Origin: a virus
DNA length: 53,962 nucleotides
UHGV virus genome: UHGV-0212970
Direction: 5' to 3' (one strand)
Part shown: positions 4,586 through 51,620 of the stretch, piece by piece
Position numbering within the stretch: position 1 is the first letter of the stretch
Layout: each line of letters starts with the position of its first letter
Translations under genes and position numbers: made by a program
Notes under the pieces: model-generated
What the model saw: only the letters and a program-made list of their open reading frames with translations
Database searches by the model: none
What the model was told of the DNA's origin: nothing

Positions 4586-4622
4586 TATGGTATTGCCTCC
4601 GGTTTACAAAATGGAATATTCA

Positions 4623-9024: not shown

Positions 9025-9025
9025 A

Positions 9026-9054
9026 TTGACTCGGTGTTTTACGGGGCGTATATT
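9026..9054 (+). promoter_or_regulatory. Sigma70-type early rightward promoter (PL-like)
   Basis: TTGACT-N17-TATATT with AT-rich upstream region; followed by a roughly 340-nt untranslated leader. Confidence 0.6.
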
Positions 9055-21106: not shown

Positions 21107-21327
21107 AAATCTGGCAGGCTATCGACGTAGTTGATAATGAATTAACAATGTTTGCCACTGACGGAAAACGCGTGGTGATCGCCACATGGACGCACAACCA
21201 TGATGATATTGTTTTTCGTCGCAAAGCTGCGGAATTGCTTTTCTCTGATGAAGGCTACACGATGAACATTGCACAGCTTGCAAGAATGAAGGATGAAAAG
21301 CTGGTAGACAGCTACACAACTGCATAA
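21097..21327 (+). CDS. Hypothetical protein
   Basis: 76-aa ORF. Confidence 0.4.
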   Translation: MELKIWQAIDVVDNELTMFATDGKRVVIATWTHNHDDIVFRRKAAELLFSDEGYTMNIAQLARMKDEKLVDSYTTA

Positions 21328-21337
21328 CGGGGTAAAT

Positions 21338-21571
21338 ATGCGTATTTATGAACACAAGCGGGATAAAACCCGCTTTTTTGTTCGTGCTGGCGTGGCGTAC
21401 CAGTATCACGACTGCGGATATATTGAGGCGCTTGCTTACGACATGGATTTCGAACAAGAAAAAGAATGGTTTGACTTTAAGATTTACCGTAAGCGCAAGC
21501 CAACGCGTGACGAACGACACGCTATCCGGGACTTTTTAATCAGCATAGACCGCTGGGAGGCAGACGAATGA
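21338..21571 (+). CDS. Hypothetical protein
   Basis: 77-aa ORF. Confidence 0.4.
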   Translation: MRIYEHKRDKTRFFVRAGVAYQYHDCGYIEALAYDMDFEQEKEWFDFKIYRKRKPTRDERHAIRDFLISIDRWEADE

Positions 21572-21795
21572 AAGTTAAATTCTTGCACGATCACGGATAC
21601 CCGTCATTGAAACAGGTTGTTGGTAAGGTCGTTAATGTCGTTCATAGCGATGATATTACTTGCATGATTAATGGTGCTGATCTCATTGCTGCTGGTGCTG
21701 ATGACCATTACATCAATCCGGCGTGGTCGTATACGTTCAGCATGGGCGATTTCGTCGGGGACAAGGGGCGCGGGCTTGAGATTGTAGAGGATTAA
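21568..21795 (+). CDS. Hypothetical protein
   Basis: 75-aa ORF. Confidence 0.4.
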   Translation: MKVKFLHDHGYPSLKQVVGKVVNVVHSDDITCMINGADLIAAGADDHYINPAWSYTFSMGDFVGDKGRGLEIVED

Positions 21796-21799
21796 CGGT

Positions 21800-22015
21800 A
21801 TGGACGTTTACGAAGATCTCTACCTACAGACCAATAGTCGCACTTTTTATTTTCTGAAAAGCGGCGTCGTATATCGCAGCGACGACGGGGTAATAATGAA
21901 AGAGTGGTTATTTAAGCGTAAAGACCTACTCGAAGATCTGGTTTTTGCCGGGATATTTCGTAAACGTCCGGCTAACCTGGAAGAAGAAATGTTGATCGAC
22001 GAGGTGTTAAAATGA
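21800..22015 (+). CDS. Hypothetical protein
   Basis: 71-aa ORF. Confidence 0.4.
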   Translation: MDVYEDLYLQTNSRTFYFLKSGVVYRSDDGVIMKEWLFKRKDLLEDLVFAGIFRKRPANLEEEMLIDEVLK

Positions 22016-22257
22016 AAGTGAATTATTTCAGGGCAAAAGACAAGGCAACAGGAAAGCGGGTGGCTATCCTGGTTAATGAAGCAAATTATATGTTTGTTCT
22101 CCAGCCGTGGTGCATGGCTGACTATAACGATGATTATCGTCGTCACGCTGCGCGGCGGGCGGTCGGGATGAAAGGCTGGCAACCGCGCGACATGCTTAAT
22201 TATTGCGACTGGAATCTGATAGCAAAATACACGGTAGATTATAAAGGGGTTTTCTGA
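22012..22257 (+). CDS. Hypothetical protein
   Basis: 81-aa ORF. Confidence 0.4.
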   Translation: MKVNYFRAKDKATGKRVAILVNEANYMFVLQPWCMADYNDDYRRHAARRAVGMKGWQPRDMLNYCDWNLIAKYTVDYKGVF

Positions 22258-22911: not shown

Positions 22912-22955
22912 TATACAAAATGGCATTGTTTCGGCGGTGCCATTTTGTTATAAAG
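22912..22955. promoter_or_regulatory. Inverted pair of the 12-nt element (TATACAAAATGG - 16 nt - CCATTTTGTTATAAA)
   Basis: Right arm gives TG-n-TATAAA extended -10 about 35 nt upstream of the 22990 gene. Confidence 0.35.
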
Positions 22956-24034: not shown

Positions 24035-24289
24035 ATGGAAATAATAAAACTGTGGCGCGGCAATAGCAAGGCTGATGGTGAGTTTTGCCGCGTAGTTCAA
24101 TTTGTCAATTATGGTAGGTTTTATGAGCTACCTTATGACAAAAGGAAGGATGATTTCTATTTAAGCGAATCAATCCCGATGCACAGAAAAATGAAAGCGC
24201 TTAGAGGATTATTGCGAAGCGGTTTTTATTCTTGCCCTAACCCATTAAACAATCCTGAATTGGTGGCTGTTTTTTACGAAGGAGAATGA
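24035..24289 (+). CDS. Hypothetical protein, tandem paralog B
   Basis: 84 aa; paralog of 23759..24016. Confidence 0.45.
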   Translation: MEIIKLWRGNSKADGEFCRVVQFVNYGRFYELPYDKRKDDFYLSESIPMHRKMKALRGLLRSGFYSCPNPLNNPELVAVFYEGE

Positions 24290-24291
24290 AA

Positions 24292-24615
24292 ATGACTAAA
24301 TTTATCAGCGTTAAAGTTTTCCGTGGCACTTTTCCAGAAGATAAAGAAATTGGACAATTCGCAGGTGAACGTTGAGTATGTTTCCGTGTAGCTACTGAAG
24401 ACGATGCGCACGTTAAATGCTTTCACGTATCTGAACCGCCTTTTAATGCAGAACATCTTGAAGACCTGAATAGAATTAAAAGCCTTATTTTTGCCTATCT
24501 GGCGTTCCCTGGCATAGCTAATGCTGATGTGGGATTGGTTGGCGCTGAACTGGTTGCGGAATACAAAATGACTGAAGGTGTAACAGGGGGAACTGACATT
24601 GAGCGCATCAAGTAA
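24292..24615 (+). CDS. Hypothetical ORF interrupted by an in-frame TGA near 24373-24375
   Basis: ATG at 24292, 27 codons, TGA, then 80 open codons with no internal start, ending at TAA 24613-24615. Confidence 0.35.
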
Positions 24616-24850
24616 GCTATACAAGATCAGGTGTAAAGGCGAATACCCTGGCTTTACGATTGGTTGCGAATACCTGGGCCACATTGGGTACGGCCCTTTC
24701 GGTGAGTTGGGGATGAGCACGCTGGACGATGACGGCGACAGCCGGACGCTTGATCTTGATTCTGATGATTTCGAATACATCCCGCCAGTCACTTACCGTG
24801 ACGTCGATGATTTCCTGGCTGAACAAGAAGACGATGAAGAGGATGATTAA
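24599..24850 (+). CDS. Hypothetical acidic protein
   Basis: 83 aa, TTG start after SD GGGGGA; Asp/Glu-rich C-terminus. Confidence 0.4.
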   Translation: MSASSKLYKIRCKGEYPGFTIGCEYLGHIGYGPFGELGMSTLDDDGDSRTLDLDSDDFEYIPPVTYRDVDDFLAEQEDDEEDD

Positions 24851-24985
24851 CTATGGATGACGAATACGTTAATAATTTTATTGTTATGTTTCTTAGTGAA
24901 AACTGGCGCATGTTTGAACATTATTGTTTTGAGCGCGGGGAAAATGCTGAAGAAATATATCAATATTTAGGCGGGGAGAAAGAGG

Positions 24986-25180
24986 ATGATTGAATGTCTT
25001 ATCATTGCTGTGTTTCTCCTTTATATTGCTGGCGCTATCCTGATGTCTTGTTTTATCAAATCTAATGATCTCGATCGTGGTGGTCTTGAGATTCCTTTCT
25101 GGCCTGTAGCGGTGTTTATTGCTCTCGTAGATGCCACGCGCGCGCAGATCAAAAGGGTTATTAAGGAGCGCAAGAAATGA
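24986..25180 (+). CDS. Small membrane protein
   Basis: 64 aa; two hydrophobic segments. Confidence 0.4.
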   Translation: MIECLIIAVFLLYIAGAILMSCFIKSNDLDRGGLEIPFWPVAVFIALVDATRAQIKRVIKERKK

Positions 25181-25359
25181 TTGAAGATGGTATATACGCC
25201 GTAACACTAATCGACAAGATGTTTTATCGCGTAGAGGGTGGTGATATTCGCGTTTGCGTTAGCGATGGTGAGTGGGTAGCGCCAATCATCAAGACGACGC
25301 GAGAAACAATTAAAATCTGGCTTGATAATGGCGATTTGGTGAAAGTTAGTGATTTGTAG
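25177..25359 (+). CDS. Hypothetical protein
   Basis: 60-aa ORF. Confidence 0.4.
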   Translation: MIEDGIYAVTLIDKMFYRVEGGDIRVCVSDGEWVAPIIKTTRETIKIWLDNGDLVKVSDL

Positions 25360-25464
25360 CCATAATCGCGCATAAAAAACAAATAGATTAAAATATTTCC
25401 TAACAATGCGAAATTGTAATTACCCAGCCACGCGCCGGGTTTTTGCTTTGTTGGAGGAAAATCT

Positions 25465-25665
25465 ATGTTCGACAGAATACGGGAGGCGTGTGCGTATGTG
25501 ACTGGGGCCGTAACTGCTTTTTTCGGCGCGATAACCATCAATGACATTGCCGTCTTTGTGGGTATCTTATCAACCGTAGGCACATTTGCCGTTAATTATT
25601 ACTTCAAATTACAGGAGAACAAGCGAGCGCAAGAGGAACACGACGCGCGAATGGGGAATAAGTAA
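25465..25665 (+). CDS. Class II holin (pinholin-like, phage 21 S type)
   Basis: 66 aa; two TM segments and charged C-terminus, architecture like S21 as I recall it; directly upstream of SAR endolysin. Confidence 0.75.
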
Positions 25666-38271: not shown

Positions 38272-38949
38272 ATGATCCATGTTCGAACGGGACAATTTGC
38301 GGCGGTGGTAGACGGCAGGCGGTACGTGTTTAATCCCTGCTTCGCTGCAATGGCTAAAATCGGCAGTGACAGCGAACTGGTCGAATACTTCGCAACCATA
38401 CACGGTGGCAAATATCCATCACGATTGCCAGCGGATCCAGACCTTCGCAATCGCATTATGGCGCGGTGTTATGGTGAAATGGTGCAAACGTCCATGCACA
38501 TCCTGAAATGTTGCTCAGACGACGAAATAGGCACGCTATTAGGCGAATGTAGGTTTACTCCTTCCGGCAAGTTACGACTAAGACCAGGACTGATGCCTAC
38601 CAGTGACGTTATCACGCTGGCGCAGCATTGCATGTACCACGGCTTAATCGGTGACGGGCCGGAAGAAGACGCCGGAGAGATCCGGGAAGGGGAATATAAG
38701 CCTACTTTTAACGTGCTGGAATTCGTTTATTCTGCCGTTGCTCACCTGGGCTTGTCAGAATCGGAAGCATGGAATATGACAATGACCGGATATAGGGCCG
38801 CTGTACGCGCTAAAACGCCGCCAGACGAAAGAAACGAGAGAAGCAAGCCAAACATTCACATAAATAAACGTGCTTATGACGAGCAAATGGAGGCCGCTAA
38901 AAAGGCACTAGAAAGAATGAAAAATCGTGAGCAAGAAAAAGCCCGGTAG
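38272..38949 (+). CDS. Putative tail assembly chaperone
   Basis: ORF track 38263..38949; between major tail and tape measure, the position of lambda G/GT; acidic/basic C-terminus. Confidence 0.4.
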   Translation: MIHVRTGQFAAVVDGRRYVFNPCFAAMAKIGSDSELVEYFATIHGGKYPSRLPADPDLRNRIMARCYGEMVQTSMHILKCCSDDEIGTLLGECRFTPSGKLRLRPGLMPTSDVITLAQHCMYHGLIGDGPEEDAGEIREGEYKPTFNVLEFVYSAVAHLGLSESEAWNMTMTGYRAAVRAKTPPDERNERSKPNIHINKRAYDEQMEAAKKALERMKNREQEKAR

Positions 38950-38963
38950 ATCCGGGCGTTTTG
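38941..38963 (+). terminator. Terminator-like hairpin after tail chaperone gene
   Basis: GCCCGG-TAGA-TCCGGGC followed by GTTTT. Confidence 0.5.
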
Positions 38964-39338
38964 CTAATTGAAATCTTTAATTGCTGTACCTGGTGAACTG
39001 TGTGTGATTGTATTGTATACAGACTTTGCCTTACTGCGATCTTTCCATTCTTTTAGGATGCAGTTATCAAACTTTGCGATAACCCTTGAAGGGGATAATT
39101 CTTCAACATCCATGTAAGTAAATCCTATCGTGCTGGTTACTGAATACCATACGTGATAACTATAATTACCGTCATGCTCGATTCTTTGTGGTTCCCCCAT
39201 TATTTTATTCACTTGCTCACAAGTCATTCCAACTTGCAATTTTTTATCAGCTAACTTAACGAAATCAGTTGATCTTGCGCACCCTGTAAGAGCTAAAGCC
39301 ATAACACCAATGAGAGCCGCTTTGATTATGTTTTTCAT
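38964..39338 (-). CDS. Lipoprotein (moron, 124 aa)
   Basis: Signal peptide with lipobox LTGC; opposite strand inside tail cluster; AT-rich. Confidence 0.6.
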   Translation of the reverse strand: MKNIIKAALIGVMALALTGCARSTDFVKLADKKLQVGMTCEQVNKIMGEPQRIEHDGNYSYHVWYSVTSTIGFTYMDVEELSPSRVIAKFDNCILKEWKDRSKAKSVYNTITHSSPGTAIKDFN

Positions 39339-39348
39339 GATTTACCCC

Positions 39349-40008
39349 TTAATTCCAGTTGCAAGCGTTTTTCACTTTGTCGATGTGGTTATAAAGACCA
39401 TCAATGTTAAACACTGCTTTCTCAATGTCGCCAGCTTCCGGCACTACTTCAATGATGAATTGTTTTTCGTTAACCATTTTTTTAATCATTGGGATGGCTT
39501 TTTTGCCATCCCATAATCCAAGAGCTTTATAATTAGTTGACCGCCCCCACTCAGTAGCTACAGCTTTGTGAACGCCGATCCGGTAGTTAATATAAGTAGT
39601 GTCCCCGGCGTCAGTTACATGGTGTGACCATGCTACGAACATTTTTGTTTTATTACCCTGGCAAGCGATTGTTAATACCGGTTTATTCTTATCCTGTGCC
39701 TTCAGTGTCGGGAAAGCATCAAGACTTCCGCTGAATTGTTCTGCTTTCACAAAAAGGAATACGTTTTTTGCGTCCTGCATATCATCTTTTCTTTCAACTA
39801 CAAGCCACTGTTTACCAGCATTTTCTTTTTCTAACTGTGCATCGTATGCGGCTTGTTTTGCTTGTTGTTCTGCAAGCCATTTAGCATTTTTCTCTGCTAA
39901 TGCTTGTTGTTCTTGATTGGTCACTATAGGCGCTTTTTCATTATCCTCATTGCAACCAACCAGACCCAATACCGCCGCAATCATTGCCACTTTTGCTAAC
40001 CGTTTCAT
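39349..40008 (-). CDS. Lipoprotein (moron, 219 aa)
   Basis: Signal peptide with lipobox LVGC; Gln/Ala-rich coiled segment then globular domain. Confidence 0.6.
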   Translation of the reverse strand: MKRLAKVAMIAAVLGLVGCNEDNEKAPIVTNQEQQALAEKNAKWLAEQQAKQAAYDAQLEKENAGKQWLVVERKDDMQDAKNVFLFVKAEQFSGSLDAFPTLKAQDKNKPVLTIACQGNKTKMFVAWSHHVTDAGDTTYINYRIGVHKAVATEWGRSTNYKALGLWDGKKAIPMIKKMVNEKQFIIEVVPEAGDIEKAVFNIDGLYNHIDKVKNACNWN

Positions 40009-40055
40009 AACCCACCACGCTAACTTGATTTACTGACCTTTCCCTTTGGCTTACT

Positions 40056-40099
40056 TATACAAAATGGAGTCGTTGAAGTAAAGCCATTTTGTATAAAAT
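40056..40099. promoter_or_regulatory. Divergent promoter-like pair built from inverted copies of the 12-nt element
   Basis: TATACAAAATGG - 16 nt - CCATTTTGTATAAAAT; each arm gives TG plus TATAA(G/A) -10-like box, facing the lipoprotein genes leftward and tape measure rightward. Confidence 0.4.
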
Positions 40100-40135: not shown

Positions 40136-42481
40136 ATGGCTACCAGTGTAGGTACAATTTATTACGAAGTTGATGCAAAAACTGGTCAACTTCTCGTTGC
40201 ACAACGACAGGCAGACCAGGCCTTTGACCGTATAGAGCGCGGCGCAAAACAGGCTGACCGCCAGGTAAACACCCTGAAAACATCCATCAAAGCACTGACC
40301 AGGGTTATCCATTTGCTAATTGCTGCCGAGGCTGTGCGCCAATTTATGGATATGGCGGAGCAAGCAAAAATGCTTCGCGTAAAAATCAAAATGCTTACGG
40401 GCGATGCGGAGTCCGCCGGACGGGTTTTCGACGGCCTGAAAGCAATATCCAGGGAAACGGGGCAAAGCCTGAAGGATACTGGCGAGCTATGGCAAGGTCT
40501 TGCCATCTCACTGAAGAACACGTCAGCTACGGAAGGGCAATTACTTAACCTGGTTGGCACTATTCAGAAAATGGGGGCGTTAGGCGGCGCATCAGCGGAA
40601 CAGATGTCTAACTCTATGCGCCAGTTCCGCCAGTCTATAGACGGCGGCGTGCTGCGTGCTGAAGAATTTAACAGCCTACTTGAAAACACCCCGACCATCG
40701 TACAGACAATGGCCCGTCAGATGGGGTTATCTATGGGCCAGTTCCGCGCCGAAATGCTGGACGGCAAGATCACGGCAGAAAGGATGGTTAACGCAATCCA
40801 GGCGGCTACGCAGGAAACAAACGAGCAGTTTGCTCAGTTGCCGCGCACATCCGGCATGGCTATCAATGAGCTTAAAGTCGAAATCATGGGTCTTGTTGAA
40901 CAGCTTGATGATCTTTTCGGCGTATCAGATGGCGTAGTCTCAGCTATCGACTTAATCACAAAAGGCGTTAAGGGGTTAGGTGAGGGCGCTAAATTCGCTA
41001 AAACCTGCTTCGATACACTCAAAACGGCTGGTGGCGAATTCATCGACATGTTTGATGATGTGGCTGTGAAGGCTGGCGAGGTGGCAGAGAAGATCATCGC
41101 AATGGTGACGCCAATCAAGGCACTTATGGACGCCTACAAATGGATGAAGGAGGTTGTAGATAAGCGCAAGGAAGAACTAAATAGCAACAATGAGAAGAAA
41201 TTCGGCCCTACAGTCGGTAAAGTCATGACTTTTGCAAACGACATTAAAAACGCGACTGCCGCTTATGATGAGTTTATGCAGAAACAGGCAGAAGCCAACG
41301 ACGGCAAGATCACCGGATTCGACAAGCCAGTTGATAAGCCTAAAAAGGGTAAGAAGACTGGCAGCAAGAAAAGCAAAGAGGATACGCTTGGTGACAAGGG
41401 TATAAGCGTTTCTGACCAGTACAATAAAGACGCCGCCGCCATGCGCAAAGCGTTAGAGAACGGCAAGGCCATTGATGCTGCATTCGCCCAGGGTAAAATC
41501 ACCCTCCTTGAGTACCGCGCCGCGCAAAAAGGGATAGGTAAGGAACTGAAGGAAGAATTAGCCCAAATTCCGGTAGATGAATTGCGTGATAAATGGGCGC
41601 AAATAGTAAGCCCGATGAATCAGCTTAAAGGCGAGGTTGACCCTATTCAGCAGGTACAAAATGAATGGGCCGTCCGTAAGCAAATGCTTATCGACCTGGG
41701 CGCTACCGAAGCGCAACAGAAACAGGCATTGTTAGCCTATGAGCAACAGATCCGCGATCTGAAATGGGAGCAATGGCAGGCGCAAAGCCAGACAAACGGC
41801 CTGATCGGTGATTGCGTTAATGGCCTTAAAGGTGGCATGAGCAATGCGCTTGTCGGCCTGCTTAACGGTACTCAATCATTGAGCGATGTTTTTGCTAACT
41901 TAGGGAGCAATATACTAGGGAATATTGGCAACAGACTTTCTGATATAGCAGCCGACTGGATAGCAGATCAGATCATGATGGAAACACAAAGCAAGGCAAC
42001 TCAAGCAAGTACAACGGCAAGCGCGGTTGCCGCTCAGGAAAGCATCGCGGCGGCGGCGGCCCCGGCGGCGGCGGCAACGGCTGCATCAACTGGCGGTAGC
42101 TGGGCGGCGGCTGGTTCGGCTGCGCTCACTGCGATCATGTCGCTGGCTACGTCAATTTTCGGCGGCGGTCGCTTTAATGGTGGTAGCGTCATTGGTGGCA
42201 ATATGTACCGCGTAGGGGAACACAACAGGCCGGAGCTATTCCAGACGTCTAACGGCAACCAATATATGATCCCAGGCGAGAACGGCAGGGTTATTCCTGG
42301 TCGTGATATTGGCGGCGGTGGCGGTTTTAGTATGCCTGTCAGTATCAGTATTCAAACCACAAACGGATTTAGCGAAGAAGACAGCCGCAGACTTGAATCA
42401 ACAATGGAACGTGTAGCAATGAAGATGATAACAAGGGAATCGCAAAGACCTGGCGGGATGTTGCAACCGCGCCGCAAATAA
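40136..42481 (+). CDS. Tail tape measure protein
   Basis: 781 aa; long helical protein with Ala/Gly-rich TM-like region near C-terminus; lambda H-like position. Confidence 0.85.
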   Translation: MATSVGTIYYEVDAKTGQLLVAQRQADQAFDRIERGAKQADRQVNTLKTSIKALTRVIHLLIAAEAVRQFMDMAEQAKMLRVKIKMLTGDAESAGRVFDGLKAISRETGQSLKDTGELWQGLAISLKNTSATEGQLLNLVGTIQKMGALGGASAEQMSNSMRQFRQSIDGGVLRAEEFNSLLENTPTIVQTMARQMGLSMGQFRAEMLDGKITAERMVNAIQAATQETNEQFAQLPRTSGMAINELKVEIMGLVEQLDDLFGVSDGVVSAIDLITKGVKGLGEGAKFAKTCFDTLKTAGGEFIDMFDDVAVKAGEVAEKIIAMVTPIKALMDAYKWMKEVVDKRKEELNSNNEKKFGPTVGKVMTFANDIKNATAAYDEFMQKQAEANDGKITGFDKPVDKPKKGKKTGSKKSKEDTLGDKGISVSDQYNKDAAAMRKALENGKAIDAAFAQGKITLLEYRAAQKGIGKELKEELAQIPVDELRDKWAQIVSPMNQLKGEVDPIQQVQNEWAVRKQMLIDLGATEAQQKQALLAYEQQIRDLKWEQWQAQSQTNGLIGDCVNGLKGGMSNALVGLLNGTQSLSDVFANLGSNILGNIGNRLSDIAADWIADQIMMETQSKATQASTTASAVAAQESIAAAAAPAAAATAASTGGSWAAAGSAALTAIMSLATSIFGGGRFNGGSVIGGNMYRVGEHNRPELFQTSNGNQYMIPGENGRVIPGRDIGGGGGFSMPVSISIQTTNGFSEEDSRRLESTMERVAMKMITRESQRPGGMLQPRRK

Positions 42482-42486
42482 CACTA

Positions 42487-42512
42487 AGGCCGCTATAAGC
42501 GGCCTTTATTTT
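42487..42512 (+). terminator. Rho-independent terminator after tape measure gene
   Basis: AGGCCGC-TATA-AGCGGCCT followed by TTATTTT. Confidence 0.65.
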
Positions 42513-42798
42513 ACATGGTGAGAATATAAATCAAACAGCACAGGAATACAGGTGCGGCGAAGTCGCAAACGCTAGCCATATTCCATGCTTTAGGTAATAA
42601 TCCGCCATACCACGGCATTCTTTCCCGTTTTCCACCGCAAAATTCCGCTATGTAACGATATTCAGCCTGCGTGTGTTCGCGTGCAAAAAAGAATGTACAT
42701 CCAATCAGGCCGCCAGTGAGATAATCACCAGTAAGCAGGCCGATAACAACCTGCATAGCCGCCGCAGCCAGTGCGTGACCAATGACGGTTAAATCCAT
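42511..42798 (-). CDS. Small membrane protein (moron)
   Basis: 95 aa with 3 hydrophobic segments; opposite strand. Confidence 0.45.
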   Translation of the reverse strand: MDLTVIGHALAAAAMQVVIGLLTGDYLTGGLIGCTFFFAREHTQAEYRYIAEFCGGKRERMPWYGGLLPKAWNMASVCDFAAPVFLCCLIYILTM

Positions 42799-42800
42799 TG

Positions 42801-42986
42801 TTAATCCTCCTGATCGTTCTCAAATGTGCCATCTATAAATTTTTGAAGCCCGGCGATAAGTTGCGTCGCCTGCGATTTGTCAATTACGAGGATGTCAGTC
42901 CCCATGAGTTCGGTTATCCATAGCCGACCATCCTCATCAAGATCTAACCTAACTCCGTAACATAACTCTGTTTCGTCAATAATCAT
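42801..42986 (-). CDS. Hypothetical acidic protein (moron)
   Basis: 61 aa; SD GGAGG. Confidence 0.4.
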   Translation of the reverse strand: MIIDETELCYGVRLDLDEDGRLWITELMGTDILVIDKSQATQLIAGLQKFIDGTFENDQED

Positions 42987-43095
42987 TTTTCCTCCTATAA
43001 TCTTCCGTTACGTGCGACGTAACCACTGCCGAACATCACCAACCAAATATTCCAGATCTCCCGCCAGGTGAATTTATCGTCCTCCATGTCCCACC

Positions 43096-43350
43096 TCACT
43101 TATGCACCCCTTTGACTCCACAGTGCCTGTTATATTCCAGATGATCGATAATTAACCAGACTTTTAGGTCTTCGCTAAACAGCCTCCAGTCAGGGTTGAT
43201 GTCGAATTTAAAGCCATAACCATCACGTAACTTTTTGGGGCGCGCCTCTTTCTTCAAAAATGCTTTAAGCAGTTCCTTCCCTTTCTTGATAGTCCTGTCT
43301 TGTGCGTTTTTCTGTACTTTCAGGTTTTTATCAATCGCTACCAGTTTCAT
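43096..43350 (-). CDS. Hypothetical basic protein (moron; possible toxin-like partner of upstream small gene)
   Basis: 84 aa, Lys-rich; SD GGGGTGAG. Confidence 0.45.
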   Translation of the reverse strand: MKLVAIDKNLKVQKNAQDRTIKKGKELLKAFLKKEARPKKLRDGYGFKFDINPDWRLFSEDLKVWLIIDHLEYNRHCGVKGVHK

Positions 43351-43367
43351 AACTCACCCCATCATCC

Positions 43368-43523
43368 TTAGTTGAGTGCCTTCAGGAAGAAATCACGGTA
43401 TTCATCTTCTTTTGCATTCATCATGAATTGAGCGTATTTGAATGCGTCGTCGAACCCCTTAACGATTGCTATTTCCACTTGTTCGAATGCGTTGTTCAGC
43501 ATTACCACTACATAGCGTTTCAT
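43368..43523 (-). CDS. Small protein (moron, about 51 aa)
   Basis: ORF track 43368..43598; internal ATG at 43523 has strong SD GGAGGCC. Confidence 0.4.
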   Translation of the reverse strand: MKRYVVVMLNNAFEQVEIAIVKGFDDAFKYAQFMMNAKEDEYRDFFLKALN

Positions 43524-43594
43524 TTTTGGCCTCCTTCGTTGGTACTGCTTTTCTTCTTGCTTTCTATATACATCTTGTTGCGTACTATGTGAAG

Positions 43595-43675
43595 CCATTT
43601 TGTAAACTAGCTATAATCATTGTGATTAAGATCTCATTTTTCGCGTAGAGGCGCGTAAAGATATATACAAAATGT
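43595..43675. promoter_or_regulatory. Divergent promoter-like pair of the 12-nt element (CCATTTTGTAAA ... about 56 nt ... ATATACAAAATG)
   Basis: Left copy faces rightward with downstream TATAAT; right copy on minus strand reads CCATTTTGTATATAT facing the moron genes. Confidence 0.4.
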
Positions 43676-43691
43676 AACTTATGGGGGTTTT

Positions 43692-44045
43692 ATGCCGGAA
43701 GTGTTCAGATGGACGCCGCAACGAAGCTACAGCGTGACCAGGGAGCCGGACGTATCAGTTGTTAAGCTGGGCGATGGTTATGAGCAAAGACAGGTTAAAG
43801 GTATCAACCCGTTACTTGATAGCTACACCATGGTGTTTAAGGGCAGTAGCGCCGGATGTGGTGATGGTGAAAACGTAGCAATCCAGGCGGAAGCATTCTT
43901 GAGGGCGCGCGGCGCGGTCGAGGCTTTTTACTGGTCGCCGTCAATGGATAACGTGCAAAGGCTTTTTGTTTGCCGTAGCTGGAGCATGACTAAAGACGGA
44001 CCGCTATACACGCTAAACGCAACATTTGAGCAAGTTATTAATTAG
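43692..44045 (+). CDS. M: Minor tail protein M
   Basis: 117 aa; FRW ... GDGYEQR ... FEQVIN resembles lambda gpM as I recall it. Confidence 0.75.
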   Translation: MPEVFRWTPQRSYSVTREPDVSVVKLGDGYEQRQVKGINPLLDSYTMVFKGSSAGCGDGENVAIQAEAFLRARGAVEAFYWSPSMDNVQRLFVCRSWSMTKDGPLYTLNATFEQVIN

Positions 44046-44055
44046 GGGAGGGGAT

Positions 44056-44238
44056 ATGCCTTATTTTTGTGTAGTGGAGCGCACTGGCGCTTTTACATTG
44101 TTTGCCGACTATGAAATTAATGATCTAACTGTACAAGCTGATAACGGCGAGACGTGGTATCTTCATGATATGGGTGATGGATATATCGGCTGTACGACTT
44201 GGGATGGCAAAGAAGTAGCATTTCTATCCTACGATTAA
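44056..44238 (+). CDS. Hypothetical protein
   Basis: 60-aa ORF after SD GGGGAGGGG. Confidence 0.4.
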   Translation: MPYFCVVERTGAFTLFADYEINDLTVQADNGETWYLHDMGDGYIGCTTWDGKEVAFLSYD

Positions 44239-44244
44239 AAAACA

Positions 44245-44264
44245 CCCCGCCACGGCGGGGTTTA
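44245..44264. terminator. Bidirectional terminator between convergent genes
   Basis: AAAAAACA-CCCCGC-CACG-GCGGGG-TTTA; same hairpin as at 51627. Confidence 0.6.
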
Positions 44265-44337
44265 TAGTGTCGATAGCAGAATGCATAACAATCCAATAAT
44301 GATAATGATCATTTCCAGAACGTAATGTTCGCACATC

Positions 44338-44586
44338 TCATAACGCCCCCTTCAAATATGTCAATCCCTTATCAGTGACGAATGAATGATTAACCTGGTT
44401 TTCATCCGTCATGATGATGAATAACTTTTCCTGTAGGTATTTCGCTTTCGGGTACAGCGTTAAACAGACCTGGTACAGTATCCCGCGCTCAATCAGCAAA
44501 TCAATAAATTCGTGCTCATGATAACCGATGAGGCGGGCGGCCTGTTTCAGCGTGTACACATAATCGCCGTGATTGCGCCGCCCCAT
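44338..44586 (-). CDS. Hypothetical protein (moron)
   Basis: 82-aa ORF. Confidence 0.45.
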   Translation of the reverse strand: MGRRNHGDYVYTLKQAARLIGYHEHEFIDLLIERGILYQVCLTLYPKAKYLQEKLFIIMTDENQVNHSFVTDKGLTYLKGAL

Positions 44587-44595
44587 GTTGCCGCC

Positions 44596-44943
44596 TTATT
44601 TATCGAATGCGGCCAGGTTATCTATGCAGAAGTCTTTCGCAGCTTTTTCGTATTCGCGTTTTGCTTCTGGATTGTCAGCCGGGAAGCCTTTTGCGTGTAT
44701 TTCACCAGGGCAAGCCTGATCCATAGAATCAGCAAATTCAACATTGACGTTAAAGTTAATATCTTTCGGATTCATGTTTTCCACCTCATCAATTATCTGC
44801 ACCGGATTAGCAGCATATTTCACTGGATGGCCTAAACTACATTCAAGAATCCTTCCTTCTTCCAAAGCTGCCTCTTCGCTATCAAATAATCCGAAACACT
44901 CCTTGCAACCACTTAACCACACATCAAGACTATATTTTTGCAT
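44596..44943 (-). CDS. Hypothetical protein (moron)
   Basis: 115-aa ORF. Confidence 0.5.
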   Translation of the reverse strand: MQKYSLDVWLSGCKECFGLFDSEEAALEEGRILECSLGHPVKYAANPVQIIDEVENMNPKDINFNVNVEFADSMDQACPGEIHAKGFPADNPEAKREYEKAAKDFCIDNLAAFDK

Positions 44944-44955
44944 TTCGTTAACCTC

Positions 44956-45111
44956 TCATTTGACAAGTTCGATCCTGTACCCCAAAACGCGTTCGTCTTC
45001 AGCAAGTAAAAGCGCGTCAGTAAGTGCCTCGCCTTCATCCTTATACAGAGCTACAGTCATTTTTCTGCCATCAGTCAGGAATACCGTCAACCTCCACACC
45101 TTATCAGCCAT
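44956..45111 (-). CDS. Small protein (moron, about 51 aa)
   Basis: ORF track 44956..45186; internal ATG at 45111 with SD GGAGGTG. Confidence 0.35.
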   Translation of the reverse strand: MADKVWRLTVFLTDGRKMTVALYKDEGEALTDALLLAEDERVLGYRIELVK

Positions 45112-45125
45112 CTCACACCTCCGCG

Positions 45126-45202
45126 CCATTTTGTTAACTGCGCTTCCGTTTGAGTAAAATATACATATTGTATAAACCGCGATCAATCCATTTTGGTATG
45201 AT
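45126..45202 (+). promoter_or_regulatory. Two direct copies of the 12-nt element with -10-like boxes upstream of gene L
   Basis: CCATTTTGTTAA at 45126; TTGAGT-N15-TATAAA at 45150-45176; CCATTTTGGTATGAT at 45188. Confidence 0.3.
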
Positions 45203-45240
45203 TTAGCGTGACGCAGATCACAAAATCAGAAGGTGAGAAA

Positions 45241-45945
45241 ATGCGCAATATACCTACAGAGATGATTATTGATTCCGTGGACGCTGGTGTGGGCGCGGTG
45301 ATTGACTTGTTCGAACTGGACTTGTCGCCCATGGGTGGCGAGGTTATCCGCTTCCATTCCGGCGCGAATGGCTATTACGGCCCGGTTATCTGGAAGGGAT
45401 TAACTTACAACAGCTACCCGATCGAGGCTACTGGCTTCGAAATGAAAAACGAGGGCGTTTATTCGCGGCCTCAAATGGTTGTAGCCAATATCGGCGGGCT
45501 AATCACAGGGATGAATAACGACTTCAACGACCTAAGAGGCATGAAGGTTACGCGCCGCCAGGTGGAAGTAAAATACCTGGACGCCGTTAACTTCCCAAAC
45601 GGCAATCCAGATGCAGATCCATCTATTGAGGCTGTATCTTTTTACGTCGTGGAGGCCATGAGCGAGGAAACAGCGGATCAGGTGCAATATGAGCTGTCAA
45701 CGCCAATTGATGCTGATAAGGCCGTTATCCCTGGGCGCACCATCCTTGCTGACGTTTGCCAGTGGCAATACAGAGGCGACGGGTGTATGTACGCTGGCGG
45801 ACCAGTAGCAAACGATAAAGACGAGCCGACAAGCGATCCTAAAGCCGACAGATGCAGCCACCGTCTAAGCGGTTGTCGTTTGCGTTTCCCGCGTCCGAAT
45901 CCGTTACCGATTTCCTGTTTCCCTGGTTCCAGCAAGGTAGGTTAA
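45241..45945 (+). CDS. L: Minor tail protein L
   Basis: ORF track 45208..45945, ATG 45241; extended similarity to lambda gpL as I recall it (VANIGGLITGM, YLDAVNFPNGN, C-rich C-terminus). Confidence 0.8.
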   Translation: MRNIPTEMIIDSVDAGVGAVIDLFELDLSPMGGEVIRFHSGANGYYGPVIWKGLTYNSYPIEATGFEMKNEGVYSRPQMVVANIGGLITGMNNDFNDLRGMKVTRRQVEVKYLDAVNFPNGNPDADPSIEAVSFYVVEAMSEETADQVQYELSTPIDADKAVIPGRTILADVCQWQYRGDGCMYAGGPVANDKDEPTSDPKADRCSHRLSGCRLRFPRPNPLPISCFPGSSKVG

Positions 45946-47165: not shown

Positions 47166-50100
47166 ATGAGTAGCGGCGGCGGCAAAACCAAAACACCAGT
47201 ATTATTAAACGATAACCTGTATCATAAACAGTTTTATCGTGTTTTAGATATTCTCAGCGAAGGGCCGATATACGGTCCGGTAAACCAGAAAGCGCCACTG
47301 AATGATGTGATGCTTAATGACACGCCTGTTACTGACGCAAACGGGAATACATCAATACCGGGGGTTAGTATAGCCTGGCGCAACGGCACGGCTGACCAAT
47401 CGCCGATTAATGGTTTTAATGCCATTGAGTCAACCGTTATTGTCAACGCAAAGGTAACTCACGACACGCCAATAATCAGGACTGTTTCAGATCCAAACGT
47501 TAACCGCGTAAGGCTGAATCTTGGCGTTGATTCTCTGGTTCAGTCAGATAATAAGGGTAACCAATATAACACATCCGTTATGTTGATGGTTGATGTTAAA
47601 CCATCATTATCTTCTACGTGGTCGCAAATTAAAATCATTACCATCGGTCCAGGCAAACAGAGTGGTGAGTATCTTGAATCTCATATCATAGATGCGCCTA
47701 ATGAAAAACCGTTTGATATTCGCGTGCGCCGCATAACAGCAGACAGCAACAGCGATCTATTGCAGAATGATACGCGGTGGAGTAGCTACAGCGAAATCAT
47801 AGACGACAATCTGTCTTATCCTCATACCGCTGTAGCTGGCGCGGTGATTGACCATGACCAGTACACTGATACGCCTACCCGCACCTATCATCTTCGCGGC
47901 TTGATTGTTGACGTGCCTGATAACTACAACACAGAAACGCGCACATATTCGGGATTATGGCTTGGTGGATTCAAAAAAGCGTACACCAACAACCCTGCGT
48001 GGATTTTCCGGTATCTGGTTAAAAACGAGCGCTTCGGGCTTGCTAAACATGCTGGTTACATTGATGTTGATGATGGCGCTTTGTATGTGCTTTCTCAATA
48101 CTGCGATCAGTTGGTTGATGATGGCTATGGTGGCCTTGAACCTCGCATGACGCTCAACGCCTACATTACGGAGCAAATGAGCGCACGCGACTTGCTGGAT
48201 AACATTGCAGGTATGTTCCGTGGTATCGCGTTATGGGACGGGCAGCGCCTTACGGTGATGATTGATGCACCGCAAGATCCAATTGCCACCATTACAAATG
48301 CAAACGTCGTTGATGGCGCGTTTACTCGTTCAAGTCTTCCGCTTGCAGAGTGTTACAATGCCGTGATCGTATCATGGACTGACCCGGAAAACGGCTGGGA
48401 GCAATCAAAAGAATACGTAGCAGATGATGAACTAATCGCCCGCGATGGTTATAACGAAACCACGTTGGAGGCGTTCGGGTGCACGTCACGCGGGCAAGCC
48501 CACCGCGCTGGGAAGTGGCTGATAGAAACAGCAAAACGCGAGCCGTCAAAATTCACATTTAAAATGGCCCGTGACGCGATTCACTTTACGCCAGGGGATA
48601 TTATCGAGATCCTCGACAATAACCGCGCAGGTGCGCGTTTAGGCGGTCGTATCGTGGCGAATAATGGGAACGTGATAACAGTTGATAAGGTTGACAGCGA
48701 GTACATCACGGCAGGCGACACTATCAGCCTGCTTGATAGCGATGGCAAATTTAAAAAACATCAGATCACTGGTATCAACGGGAACAAAATCACACTGGCT
48801 GCGGCCCCTGCATGGATTAGAAACGGTACTGTTTTTGCTGTATCAACCGAAGCAGCAAAACCCGTTTTATGCAGAATCACCAGTGTAGCCGAAACCGAAA
48901 ATAATAGCGTGTATACCATCGAAGCCGCGCAACATGACCCTAACAAACAAGCAGTAGTCGATGAAGGCGCGGTATTTGAAATCAACAACGACACGCTTAA
49001 TCACTTCCGTGTACCGAATATTGAAAATCTGAAAGTGGTAAACATCGGATCTGAAACGGTTCAATGCCGCGCAACATGGGAAACGCAGACAACTACGCAT
49101 CGCATGACATTTGAGATCCGCATATATAACACGGATGGTGCGGTGGTAAAAAGCTACGAAACCAATAAATATAGTTATGATTTTTACGGTATTGATGCCG
49201 GATCGTACTCGTTAGGAGTTCGAGGAAGAAATGATACTGGCATGAAGGGTGCCGAAAGTATCGTTGACCTTGTTATCGGTGCGCCAGCAGCACCGATCGG
49301 CGTTAATTGGGTTCCCGGTGTATTCCAGGCGACAGTTTACCCTATTAGCAAAACCACACTTACTACCGATACGTCATACGAATTCTACTATGCAGGGGAA
49401 AACCAGATCACAGATCCGGCAAAAATAACCACGTCGGCACAGTTTACCGGGCGCGGGTATCAGTGGACGTTCGGCGGCATGAATACGGGCCATACTTATT
49501 ACGTTTATGTGCGCACTCGTAATGCTTTTGGTGTGTCTGATTTCGTCGAGGTATCAGGTAAGCCAACAGAGGATTTTGACGAAATCACTGATTACGTTAC
49601 AAAGGATGTAATGAAATCAGAGCAATTCAAGGAGATGATTAGCGACATTAAAGATCTTGGTGATCGCACTGATATTGTAGAAGGAGCTACCGAAGACCTT
49701 AAAATAGCTACAAGGGATCTTAAAGCTGACACAGATACACTTAAAAAAGACACCGAAGACCTTTATAAAAAAGTCGAAGAAAACGCCGATGAAATAGGCA
49801 AACATGAGGTAAGAATAGACTCATTAGAGGTATCAAACGAAAACGTTAACAATGAACTGGCACAGACAAAAGCAAGTTTACAAAACGCCTCGCTTGCTCT
49901 AATCAATAACTCGCTTGCTCAAACTAACACGCGGGTTACTCTTACCGCTCAATATAAGAAAGGTCGCAACGAAACAAAAGCGCAGATTGACCGCATTGAC
50001 AACGTTATCGCAGAGGAGAAAAAAGCGACAGCGGAATCACTGGAAACCATCACAGCCGAAATAAGCACGATGGACTCAAACATCAAAGGAGAAATAGCAC

Positions 50101-51620
50101 GCGTAGACAAAGCAATAGCAACCGAAACGCAGGCGAGAACGGAGGCTATAAGCAACGTTAACGCCAGTATCAGCAGCCTGGAAAATAAAACTGATGCTAG
50201 CGTTTCTCGTCTCGATCAAGCTATCGCTGATGAGTCAAGCGCCCGCGCTCAGGCAATATCAGGAATTAGTGCGGAGCTTGGTCTTGTTGAAAATGAGGTT
50301 GATAAAAACAGCGACGAAATAGATCAGGCGAAAGCAAGTCTGCAAAACGCCTCGATTGCACTTATCAACAACTCAATAGCGCAAAGCAAGATGAGCACCG
50401 TTATTGAGGCGAAGTACAGGAAAGGCCAGACAAAAACAAAAGCGGAAATAGCAAGGATCGACACAGCAATAGCAGACGAAACCCAGGCCCGCGCGGAGGC
50501 TATAGCATCGCTTGAGGCAAATATTAATGAAAACATTTCAGCAAAAATAACGGATGTTTCAACGGCACTCGCAACTCACGAGGCATCAAGCGCTGAAAAA
50601 TTTGTCCAGATCTCGGCGTCTTTCGATGATGTAAACTCAAGCATCACGGAATGGTCACAGTCTATGGCAACGGCAGACGAGGCATTATCAACCAGAATCG
50701 ACCAGTTGAAAGTAACTATTGACGGAAACACAACAGCCATAGAGACAACATCGAAAGCGTTAACGGACTTTAAGGGGGATGTCGATGCATCATACTCTAT
50801 TAAGATCGCGACAGACAGCCGGGGCGTAAAATACGCTACTGGTATGTCACTTGGCCTTACTGGTAGCGGAACTAACGTGCAATCGCAGTGTATTTTCCTC
50901 GTTGACCGCTTCGTGTTAATGACTGCGGCAAACGGTTCATATCAGACCCCGTTCTATGTTACTAACGGCGCTTGCTACATTCGTGAAGCGTGGATCAAAG
51001 ACGCATCCATCACTACCGCGAAGATCGCGCAGCAAATCCAGTCAACCAACTATGCATCTGGTTCGGCTGGCTGGATGCTAAACAAAAACGGTAACGCGGA
51101 GTTCAATAACGTCACTGTTCGGGGTACGGTATACGCCACAAACGGTAAATTTACTGGTGAGATTCAGGCCACAAGCGGGACGTTTAAAGGGACTGTACAG
51201 GCTAACAAATTTGTCGGTGATATTGTGGCTATTCACACTTTCCCTGATTCCAGCACTGTCTATAACTCAAACCAGCGTGTAGCGCGTTTCTGTTATCGCT
51301 ATGTGGACTCAACATCCGATGGGACTTATAAAAACGTTATGTTCCAGGCAAGGTTATCAGGGGCTACCGGCAACTCACAGATCAATACCTGGATAGCAGG
51401 TACTCAGGTATTGGTCGGTAAGAAATACGGTAACGAAAACTCAAACGGCATGTTCTGTTTCGGTAGGGATGGTGTAACAAATCAGACGGTCGATGTTATT
51501 ATCGAGATCCACACTCCGTGGTCAACAGGTAACATCACCGGGATTACGTTAAGTTGCCCGACTATGTTTATCGGTCGCAGTAACGGCACATGGTCGAAAT
51601 GGGAAGAATCACACGACTAA
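47166..51620 (+). CDS. J: Host specificity protein J (central tail fibre / tip attachment)
   Basis: 1484 aa; N-terminal region and C-terminal region similar to lambda gpJ as I recall it. Confidence 0.9.
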   Translation: MSSGGGKTKTPVLLNDNLYHKQFYRVLDILSEGPIYGPVNQKAPLNDVMLNDTPVTDANGNTSIPGVSIAWRNGTADQSPINGFNAIESTVIVNAKVTHDTPIIRTVSDPNVNRVRLNLGVDSLVQSDNKGNQYNTSVMLMVDVKPSLSSTWSQIKIITIGPGKQSGEYLESHIIDAPNEKPFDIRVRRITADSNSDLLQNDTRWSSYSEIIDDNLSYPHTAVAGAVIDHDQYTDTPTRTYHLRGLIVDVPDNYNTETRTYSGLWLGGFKKAYTNNPAWIFRYLVKNERFGLAKHAGYIDVDDGALYVLSQYCDQLVDDGYGGLEPRMTLNAYITEQMSARDLLDNIAGMFRGIALWDGQRLTVMIDAPQDPIATITNANVVDGAFTRSSLPLAECYNAVIVSWTDPENGWEQSKEYVADDELIARDGYNETTLEAFGCTSRGQAHRAGKWLIETAKREPSKFTFKMARDAIHFTPGDIIEILDNNRAGARLGGRIVANNGNVITVDKVDSEYITAGDTISLLDSDGKFKKHQITGINGNKITLAAAPAWIRNGTVFAVSTEAAKPVLCRITSVAETENNSVYTIEAAQHDPNKQAVVDEGAVFEINNDTLNHFRVPNIENLKVVNIGSETVQCRATWETQTTTHRMTFEIRIYNTDGAVVKSYETNKYSYDFYGIDAGSYSLGVRGRNDTGMKGAESIVDLVIGAPAAPIGVNWVPGVFQATVYPISKTTLTTDTSYEFYYAGENQITDPAKITTSAQFTGRGYQWTFGGMNTGHTYYVYVRTRNAFGVSDFVEVSGKPTEDFDEITDYVTKDVMKSEQFKEMISDIKDLGDRTDIVEGATEDLKIATRDLKADTDTLKKDTEDLYKKVEENADEIGKHEVRIDSLEVSNENVNNELAQTKASLQNASLALINNSLAQTNTRVTLTAQYKKGRNETKAQIDRIDNVIAEEKKATAESLETITAEISTMDSNIKGEIARVDKAIATETQARTEAISNVNASISSLENKTDASVSRLDQAIADESSARAQAISGISAELGLVENEVDKNSDEIDQAKASLQNASIALINNSIAQSKMSTVIEAKYRKGQTKTKAEIARIDTAIADETQARAEAIASLEANINENISAKITDVSTALATHEASSAEKFVQISASFDDVNSSITEWSQSMATADEALSTRIDQLKVTIDGNTTAIETTSKALTDFKGDVDASYSIKIATDSRGVKYATGMSLGLTGSGTNVQSQCIFLVDRFVLMTAANGSYQTPFYVTNGACYIREAWIKDASITTAKIAQQIQSTNYASGSAGWMLNKNGNAEFNNVTVRGTVYATNGKFTGEIQATSGTFKGTVQANKFVGDIVAIHTFPDSSTVYNSNQRVARFCYRYVDSTSDGTYKNVMFQARLSGATGNSQINTWIAGTQVLVGKKYGNENSNGMFCFGRDGVTNQTVDVIIEIHTPWSTGNITGITLSCPTMFIGRSNGTWSKWEESHD
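49872..50520 (+). repeat. Diverged tandem duplication inside gene J (coiled-coil segment)
   Basis: Units at about 49872-50075 and 50333-50520 encode KASLQNAS(L/I)ALINNS(L/I)AQ ... (Y/K)KKG ... TKA(Q/E)I(D/A)RID. Confidence 0.6.

Follow-up and report, generated by a model that had tools for sequence, protein, structure and literature searches.

Introduction

Two described systems are among the closest to the genes treated here. Gene 15 of phage HK97 is a moron in the tail operon that encodes a superinfection-exclusion inner-membrane protein (PMC3594210), and taiEcA of phage phi80 is transcribed opposite to the Q-dependent late operon, with its switch-off during lytic growth having been proposed (PMC11364771). 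In this study, we analysed two groups of minus-strand genes, block 1 (42511-43523) and block 2 (44338-45111), which lie among the plus-strand tail genes of UHGV virus genome UHGV-0212970, a stretch of 53,962 nucleotides (nt) referred to below as the window, together with a 12-nt element, GCCATTTTGTWA, that recurs at their predicted promoters. Over positions 42400-45300, the window is 83-88% identical at the DNA level to the Escherichia phages MagusPhagus, mEp021, mEp013, mEp010, mEp044, mEp554 and mEp515, and we assign it to the mEpimmI group as a mEp021-like temperate E. coli phage. This group comprises temperate, Nus-dependent, non-lambdoid coliphages for which a Q-like late antitermination protein has been reported and whose frequency in human-gut E. 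coli has been reported to equal that of lambdoid phages (PMC11893012).

The phage group is already described, and its genes are annotated. The GenBank/RefSeq records of relatives show the same minus-strand genes in the same places, mostly annotated as hypothetical, and in related E. coli prophages RefSeq calls one product "ParE family toxin-like protein" and another "phage antirepressor KilAC domain-containing protein". Tail-operon morons and antisense cassettes placed within late operons are likewise established. What is added here is modest: a lineage-specific promoter module common to the cassettes, the picture of a socket with swappable cargo, and evidence against an obligatory antitoxin for the ParE-like protein of block 1.

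Opposite-strand operons between the tail genes

The lambda-like tail-tip module of the window runs on the plus strand from the tape measure gene (40136-42481) through M, L, K and I to J (47166-51620), and it is interrupted in the order tape measure (plus), block 1 (minus), M (plus), block 2 (minus) and L (plus). This is the layout of a non-contiguous operon, with minus-strand genes embedded among the plus-strand tail genes of the late operon. We think it probable, with some reserve, that the blocks are autonomous accessory operons (morons) that occupy fixed "expression sockets", one at the tape-measure/M and one at the M/L junction. An earlier sequence-only reading had placed the open reading frames (ORFs) of both blocks on the minus strand, and all of them were recovered where it had put them. 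Promoters and terminators are consensus predictions throughout. The features of the region, with product lengths in amino acids (aa), isoelectric points (pI) and ratios of nonsynonymous to synonymous substitution rates (dN/dS), are as follows.

42486-42506, both strands: hairpin terminator common to the tape measure gene (plus) and block 1 (minus), with a 9-bp stem that has 6 GC pairs
42511-42798, minus strand: 95-aa membrane protein at the terminator end of block 1 (phrog_1443, E 1.8e-36)
42801-42986, minus strand: 61-aa acidic protein (phrog_13627; pI 4.05; dN/dS 0.23)
42995-43087, minus strand: 30-aa peptide, hydrophobic at its core (ATG preceded by a GAGGTGG ribosome-binding site; dN/dS 0.06)
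43096-43350, minus strand: 84-aa basic protein with a ParE_like domain (PF24732; phrog_1525; pI 9.9; dN/dS 0.05)
43368-43523, minus strand: 51-aa mildly acidic protein, first gene of block 1 (phrog_29810; pI 5.1; dN/dS 0.05)
43692-44045, plus strand: minor tail protein M (PF05939, E 8.9e-28), a late structural gene isolated between both blocks
44056-44238, plus (late) strand: conserved 60-aa acidic protein that follows M (phrog_3249)
44244-44261, strong on the minus strand: hairpin terminator of block 2, with a 7-bp stem that has 6 GC pairs, followed by a T-run
44338-44586, minus strand: 82-aa stand-alone KilAC (ANT) protein, last gene of block 2 (PF03374, E 1.8e-6)
44596-44943, minus strand: 115-aa acidic protein with five cysteines (phrog_38567 only; dN/dS 0.18)
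44956-45111, minus strand: 51-aa protein, first gene of block 2 (phrog_29559; GGAGGTG ribosome-binding site; dN/dS 0.24)

Block 1 is a five-gene operon with products in the order 51, 84, 30, 61 and 95 aa, and block 2 is a three-gene operon in the order 51, 115 and 82 aa. Intergenic gaps are 2-17 nt in both, with clear Shine-Dalgarno sites; the 30-aa peptide starts 8 nt past the stop of the ParE-like gene. Measured against relatives, dN/dS is 0.05-0.24 for all eight block ORFs, compared with 0.067 for tail gene M, and all eight, the 30-aa peptide included, are therefore taken to be real genes. The terminator at 42486-42506 is enclosed by two stop codons, that of the tape measure gene at 42481 and that of the 95-aa gene at 42511, and the block 2 terminator is annotated as a bidirectional terminator in mEp021.

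A lineage-specific promoter module

The 12-nt element occurs nine times in the window against 1.09 copies expected, and its 9-nt core, ACAAAATGG, occurs 14 times against 0.9 expected. In the predicted promoter layout, a single base separates the core from a -35 hexamer in the direction of the genes, a spacer of 17 nt lies between this hexamer and the -10, and this module scores 9-10 of 12 hexamer matches at four sites in fixed register with the element, while random positions score at least 9/12 at a frequency of 0.0045. The four sites, one further promoter and two additional element copies are listed below.

9016-9054: promoter with -35 TTGACT and -10 TATATT (10/12 matches)
22915-22954: promoter with -35 TTGTTT and -10 TATAAA (8/12), with two bases between core and -35
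40054-40096, minus strand: promoter of an earlier opposite-strand block (genes 38964-40008, here block 0), with -35 TTTACT, a 17-nt spacer and -10 TATAAG (9/12)
43565-43605, minus strand: block 1 promoter, with the element at 43594-43605, -35 TTCACA at 43588-43593 and -10 TATATA at 43565-43570 (9/12)
43665-43676, plus strand: inverted partial element copy, with ACAAAATG at 43667-43674, 71 bp upstream of the block 1 promoter copy
45125-45136, minus strand: second element copy at about +16 to +27, within the leader of block 2, an exact match that is near-invariant in 20 distinct relatives
45158-45197, minus strand: block 2 promoter, with the element variant ACCAAAATGG at 45188-45197, -35 TTGATC at 45181-45186 and -10 TATATT at 45158-45163 (9/12)

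Given the fixed register of core and hexamers, the element spans -47 to -36 and is therefore centred on -41.5. It is asymmetric and always directed toward the -35 hexamer, with an A-tract at -43 to -40. The predicted leaders are 35-40 nt long, and the predicted transcription starts of block 0, block 1 and block 2 lie near 40047, 43558 and 45151, respectively. The regions upstream of block 1 and block 2 are largely conserved in 26 and 20 distinct relatives, respectively, with many invariant columns, and the inverted copy at 43665-43676 is also largely kept, most of its non-invariant columns being at least 90% identical. The element has a density of 3.98 per 10 kb in mEpimmI tail regions, compared with 0.08 per 10 kb in the equivalent regions of a sister group, and is, on these counts, a lineage-specific part of the predicted promoters.

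The 9016 promoter lies directly past the terminator of a CI-like repressor gene (8256-8903, HTH_3 and Peptidase_S24) and upstream of a gene that positionally matches the N-like antiterminator gene gp17 of mEp021. Element copies at 8174, 8262 and 9016 flank this repressor gene, and a degenerate second copy is found at about +22 of the 9016 promoter. At block 0 and at 22915, an inverted element copy lies 25 bp away, over the -10; the inverted pair at the block 0 promoter brackets the -35, overlaps the -10 and forms a 13-bp perfect inverted repeat. Further copies occur at 4606, 17075/17139, 31517 and 35937, some as inverted pairs. No operators of Rep021 were defined in the literature found, and TTACAAAATGGC, positioned at -47 to -36 of at least five predicted sigma-70 promoters, is for that reason put forward as a candidate regulatory site for the whole phage.

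The element was also considered as an RNA element or a coding start. In blocks 0 and 1, its copies lie upstream of the predicted transcription starts, and the 76-aa ORF that opens within it at block 1 is broken in relatives, so both possibilities were set aside. A 76-aa version of the first protein of block 1, as proposed in the sequence-only reading, was dropped as well: the conserved start is the ATG at 43523, served by an AGGAGG ribosome-binding site, the N-terminal extension is out of frame in two relatives (L006 and L013), and the ATG of the longer ORF lies upstream of the predicted transcription start. The same reading had described both blocks as flanked by terminators and element copies. 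Both kinds of feature are present, but on one side each: a terminator closes the 3' end of each block, and the element belongs to the promoter at the 5' end.

A palindrome resembling a CRP site, TGTGATCTGCGTCACG, was observed at 45207-45222, upstream of the promoter of block 2 and immediately ahead of L's ribosome-binding site. Its TGTGA and TCAC half-sites are kept in relatives and its central spacer is variable; at about -64 from the predicted start, it does not fit the classical CRP positions.

Cargo exchange at the tape-measure/M and M/L junctions

To compare the junctions, 80 viral contigs encoding relatives of M were used, comprising 31 mEpimmI loci (with three GenBank/RefSeq records in addition) and 49 sister-group loci. 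The mEpimmI loci have 685-2334 bp between the tape measure gene and M and 1146-1859 bp between M and L; the one exception is L013, with an M/L gap of 99 bp. M is 66-71% identical in the sister group (M and L together, 66-72%), and there the tape-measure/M gap is 3-15 bp, about 300-500 bp or, in one locus, about 3 kb, and M is separated from L by 43-46 bp or 170-804 bp. Sister-group junctions hold cargo that is unrelated to the blocks of the window and lies on either strand. As these junctions are either empty or filled with unrelated cargo, the hotspot that the sequence-only reading had proposed is therefore real, and the comparison indicates that the tape-measure/M and M/L junctions are points of cargo exchange. 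Recorded junction cargo includes a protein of 436 aa that combines CapR and T5orf172 with five treble-clef zinc fingers (L002 2887-4197, mEp013_88), an IS200-family transposase (L024 2784-3242), a retropepsin-like aspartyl protease (L061 4514-4978) and a 3-kb insert with Arc-like and Bro-N proteins (L040 984-3944).

Within the mEpimmI group, promoter-proximal genes are conserved and terminator-proximal genes are variable. In block 1 the conserved core is made up of the genes for the 51-aa and 84-aa proteins, and in block 2 of those for the 51-aa, 115-aa and KilAC proteins. The 84-aa gene is the sole block 1 gene present in every relative (full length in 32 of 35 tblastn hits), and the 51-aa protein of block 1 is 74-98% identical across the group. 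The 30-aa peptide occurs in about 19 of 33 mEpimmI loci. Variable cargo of block 1 in relatives comprises acidic proteins of 59-61 aa, a 56-aa protein and the 95-aa membrane protein; the last is found in only about 7 of the 33 loci, and the 61-aa protein of the window belongs to a subset of loci in which some copies are just 42-49% identical.

The M/L junction holds one additional gene on the late strand, which the sequence-only reading had passed over. The 60-aa gene that follows M is present in 32 of 33 mEpimmI loci and absent from the sister group, and in L013 a deletion has removed it together with the terminator and block 2, leaving the block 2 promoter behind. Because it is lost along with block 2 in this locus and is absent in the sister group, the 60-aa gene belongs to the inserted DNA of the M/L junction. 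In three sister-group loci with "empty" M/L junctions (L036, L041 and L074), a strong terminator-like hairpin, AAGCCACCTCCGGGTGGCTTTTTT, is found just after M; this hairpin may predate the cargo and could be its landing site. At the tape-measure/M junction, the empty state takes the form of overlapping stop and start codons (TAATG) in L036 and L041, and L074 has a short gap there.

Taken as a whole, the blocks show the marks of morons, namely extra DNA compared with relatives, a predicted promoter and terminator of their own, and a deviating base composition (the GC content of both blocks is 0.443, that of the tape measure gene 0.508 and that of L-K-I 0.494), although the empty M/L junction of the sister group already holds a hairpin. 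In the sequence-only reading, the blocks and block 0 were three independent insertions. Their status as accessory units holds up; full independence does not, as one lineage-specific promoter module is present in all three.

Proposed expression and its alternatives

On the reading that we prefer, each socket consists of a predicted sigma-70 promoter with the 12-nt site, a leader of 35-40 nt, a conserved promoter-proximal core and a hairpin terminator common to the cassette and the converging late gene, and new cargo is exchanged at the terminator end. The cassettes would be transcribed from their own sigma-70 promoters, with transcription ending at the hairpins. Because they lie antisense to the Q-like-dependent late operon, their transcription would fall in periods without late transcription, most likely in the lysogen. 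During lytic growth, Q-like-dependent late transcription would then read through the hairpins, antisense over the cassettes, and silence them as in a non-contiguous operon, resulting in mutual exclusion. The presence of the promoter site at the early promoter beside the CI-like repressor gene as well suggests that a phage regulator ties the cassettes to the immunity state. Among the products, the ParE-like protein might be a growth-inhibiting or addiction-type factor, the 95-aa membrane protein and the small peptide might act on the envelope, and the KilAC protein might bind a regulator; most likely, these products serve accessory roles for the prophage or the host.

Several observations weigh against this picture. 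The core genes are found in nearly all of the approximately 33 mEpimmI loci examined and of the about 47 found with the ParE-like protein, and in this distribution they behave like core genes of the group and not like recent additions. The promoter module is also that of the early promoter beside the repressor gene, a promoter that lysogens must keep off, and at several of the promoters the element recurs, either over the -10 or at about +22. As the early-promoter layout and these second copies look operator-like, the blocks could be repressed in lysogens and expressed early in lytic growth. Moreover, none of the block proteins matched a known defence or exclusion family.

One alternative is that the blocks are early lytic operons under immunity control, with the element serving as an operator for the CI-like repressor or a Cro-like protein, so that the blocks fire with the early promoter on infection or induction and act on the host or on resident prophages. 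We regard this as a real possibility, though a lesser one than expression from the prophage. It draws on the layout that the blocks share with the 9016-9054 promoter, past the repressor gene and upstream of the N-like gene, on the second copy at about +22 in block 2 and, in degenerate form, at the early promoter, and on the inverted copy over the -10 at block 0 and at the 22.9-kb promoter. The confinement of the element to this single-immunity phage group, the occurrence of distant ParE-like homologues in same-strand arrays of small genes that resemble early regions, and the KilAC domain, which is typical of antirepressors, also point in this direction. Conversely, a lone asymmetric site centred on -41.5 has the position of an activator site or UP element and not that of a repressor site, and CI-type helix-turn-helix (HTH) repressors usually bind short palindromes over the core promoter. 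Known opposite-strand inserts in late operons, furthermore, are expressed from the prophage (PMC3594210, PMC11364771). In sum, the element position suits an activator or UP element, while the extra copies and the early-promoter layout suit an operator; we somewhat favour prophage expression over early lytic expression.

A wider scheme, which we consider rather unlikely, would join the three tail cassettes, the early promoter and the 22.9-kb promoter into one regulon through the -41.5 site. This site would be read by a master regulator of the phage, of which the CI-like Rep, working as a class II activator in the manner of lambda CI at PRM, would be one example, with the extra copies mediating repression; the sockets would then be wired to immunity and their cargo swapped, and the ParE-like protein would function without an obligatory antitoxin.

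The 51-aa and 84-aa genes as a possible toxin-antitoxin pair

The 51-aa and 84-aa genes of block 1 could form a type II toxin-antitoxin system of the ParDE/RelBE kind, in which the 84-aa protein poisons gyrase or translation and the 51-aa protein neutralises it, for prophage stabilisation or abortive infection. We find this doubtful. In its favour, a small, mildly acidic gene comes first and the basic 84-aa gene follows 17 nt on, the 84-aa protein matches the PF24732 ParE_like profile at 39.8 bits (cutoff 24.4; E 4.7e-10) and is named "ParE family toxin-like protein" by NCBI, eight loci have a block 1 made of these two genes alone, and some prophages carry truncated or frameshifted 84-aa genes. 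Against it stand L026 and L029, in which an intact 84-aa gene (94-95% identical) lies directly behind the promoter and the 51-aa gene is cleanly absent. The IMG identifier of L029 resembles one for an isolate genome. The loss in these two phages (at about 3579-3906) is precise, with promoter, leader and ParE-like gene all kept. Every locus examined retains the 51-aa gene, the 30-aa peptide gene, or both.

Homologues that are 47-53% identical to the 84-aa protein reside in long same-strand arrays of small genes (one on a contig of 140 kb), where the upstream neighbour is an unrelated 69-aa gene; this also argues against a fixed pair. In a whole-library phmmer search and a profile word search, homologues of the 84-aa protein were found only in the mEpimmI group and in this one lineage. 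The 51-aa protein has no Pfam or NCBIfam match even at E up to 10, no ribbon-helix-helix (RHH), Phd/YefM, HTH or AbrB DNA-binding domain in Pfam or NCBIfam, and an AlphaFold model consisting of one long helix (predicted local distance difference test, pLDDT, 81; predicted template modelling score, pTM, 0.41). The promoter holds the phage-wide 12-nt element and no operator specific to the pair.

Structural comparison does not strengthen the case for a toxin. The AlphaFold model of the 84-aa protein, built with 14 homologues, has a pLDDT of 63.9, and its best Foldseek match to solved structures has an E of 3.5; a profile search of solved structures returned nothing for the 84-aa family, and hhalign of its profile against RelE and YoeB gave 1-2% probability. 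The remote-homology and structure check proposed in the sequence-only reading yielded the Pfam ParE_like and KilAC matches, but no solved-structure match for the 84-aa protein. No mention of PF24732 was found in the literature searched. The label "ParE family toxin-like" calls for caution, being by itself no evidence for a toxin-antitoxin system. A search of PADLOC-DB 2.0 gave no significant defence match for the block proteins, with one weak match of the 84-aa protein to PDC-M02A (E 0.0026, 15.8 bits).

The suggestions made from sequence for this pair thus fared unevenly. The antitoxin-toxin-like arrangement is borne out in gene order and in the ParE_like match, while no antitoxin features were found in the 51-aa protein, and L026 and L029 speak against an obligate partner. 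That neither protein matches a named family is true of the 51-aa protein in Pfam and NCBIfam and untrue of the 84-aa protein, and the notion of defence cargo finds no match to a known defence system in PADLOC for any block protein. The evidence gathered here argues against an obligatory antitoxin for the ParE-like protein.

Truncated or frameshifted ParE-like genes (46-61 aa) were observed in several E. coli prophages, for example at L003 5118-5279. The truncated proteins are P0033-P0039 and P0103-P0107, one of which is annotated by NCBI in strain PAR.

That the blocks encode factors for the phage's own tail assembly or its regulation, and so are not accessory at all, is highly improbable: they lie inside the tail module, their core genes are near-universal in the group and a KilAC-like protein is among the core genes of the published pangenome (PMC11893012), but sister-group phages assemble this tail module around junctions that are empty or hold unrelated cargo, L013 is without block 2, the blocks are on the opposite strand with predicted promoters of their own, and searches of Pfam, PHROG and NCBIfam gave no similarity to structural or chaperone families.

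Other products of the blocks

None of the proteins of either block has an NCBIfam match. The 82-aa protein of block 2 matches PF03374 at 28.7 bits (cutoff 25.3) over profile positions 23-102 of 108 and shares 33-41% identity with the C-terminal portions of Rha/Ant antirepressors from Vibrio, Cronobacter and Hafnia phages. It is essentially KilAC alone, with no KilA-N, Bro-N or Rha partner domain at its N-terminus. The matches of the 115-aa and 51-aa proteins of block 2 are confined to small PHROG families annotated without function, and the 115-aa protein has no Pfam, NCBIfam or PADLOC match. A RecA-like assignment of the 115-aa protein, based on an E of 4e-6 to fused RecA hexamer constructs, was rejected because the score is produced by six-fold repetition of a match of 3.6 bits per repeat; the resemblance of residues 79-109 to the RecA C-terminal helix (DNPEAKREYEK compared with DNPETAKEIEK) is probably due to chance.

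The 95-aa protein of block 1, which the sequence-only reading took to have three transmembrane segments, has two strongly hydrophobic segments (residues 3-25 and 73-95) and a weaker third. Homologues with 54-59% identity are placed after tail-fibre genes in lambdoid phages. The 30-aa peptide has no family match in Pfam, PHROG, NCBIfam or PADLOC. Rfam and tRNA scans of 38.5-45.5 kb detected no known RNA, with only a sub-threshold match on the terminator hairpin.

Block 0 and other interruptions of rightward transcription

An opposite-strand block of the same plan precedes block 1.

38941-40096, minus strand: block 0, with two lipoprotein genes (38964-39338 and 39349-40008) and a terminator at 38941-38957

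The 219-aa lipoprotein encoded at 39349-40008 (minus strand) matches the VasI type VI secretion family (PF11319, E 1.4e-15), which is unexpected in a tail-module insert, and its 124-aa neighbour lipoprotein has weak BamE/OsmE-like matches. The published exclusion lipoproteins Lpp021 and Lpp010 were considered as counterparts of the two lipoproteins and rejected, as they are gp81 and gp116, located downstream of J.

Outside the blocks, another variable junction of the tail module was observed between I and J: mEp021 has an HNH endonuclease gene there (L001 9014-9580, mEp021_78), and the window, in which I ends at 47152 and J starts at 47166, is without it. Upstream of the packaging genes, minus-strand ORF runs at 21119-22182 and 24274-25583 break the rightward transcription unit, and the element-bearing promoter at 22915 lies just past the first of these runs.

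Comparison with known systems

mEpimmI phages are reported to be as common as lambdoid phages in human-gut E. coli (PMC11893012), and these accessory genes are therefore expected to be widespread in commensal and pathogenic strains. The exchange junctions, together with the common promoter module, offer a concrete view, open to testing, of the way in which small host-modifying genes are carried and regulated by a temperate phage.

The blocks resemble HK97 gene 15 in being extra DNA between conserved tail genes, with their own predicted promoter and terminator, deviant GC content and small products, including a membrane protein in the cargo of block 1. They differ from it in that HK97 has a single gene at the chaperone/tape-measure junction, whereas here multi-gene operons on the opposite strand occupy the tape-measure/M and M/L junctions, and in that the promoters appear to be a module of the phage lineage and not to have been brought in with the cargo; the likeness is one of arrangement. 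It is likewise in arrangement that the blocks are similar to phi80 taiEcA/atiEcA, with genes that lie opposite to the Q-dependent late operon and interrupt it. The phi80 gene, however, is found upstream of the module for packaging, whereas the blocks are at tail-module junctions, and no paired counter-defence gene was identified.

As in ParDE and RelBE systems, a small gene comes first, and 17 nt further on begins the gene for a basic 84-aa protein that scores above the ParE_like threshold, but unlike in these systems, the partner is absent in two phages, it has no RHH, Phd or HTH domain, and a pair-specific operator is not found. The KilAC protein of block 2 shares its domain, and 33-41% identity in the C-terminal part, with KilAC/ANT antirepressors such as P22 Ant, P1 Ant/KilA and Rha-Ant fusions, and departs from the characterised antirepressors in consisting of KilAC alone and in being encoded in the tail module instead of the immunity region. 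Class II activator sites and proximal UP-element subsites centre near -41.5, as does the lambda CI site at OR2 that activates PRM. The 12-nt element is like such sites in being asymmetric, in lying at -47 to -36 directed toward the -35 hexamer, and in having its A-tract at -43 to -40; it is unlike them in recurring far upstream, at about +22 or over the -10, and these extra copies suggest a role in repression or looping as well.

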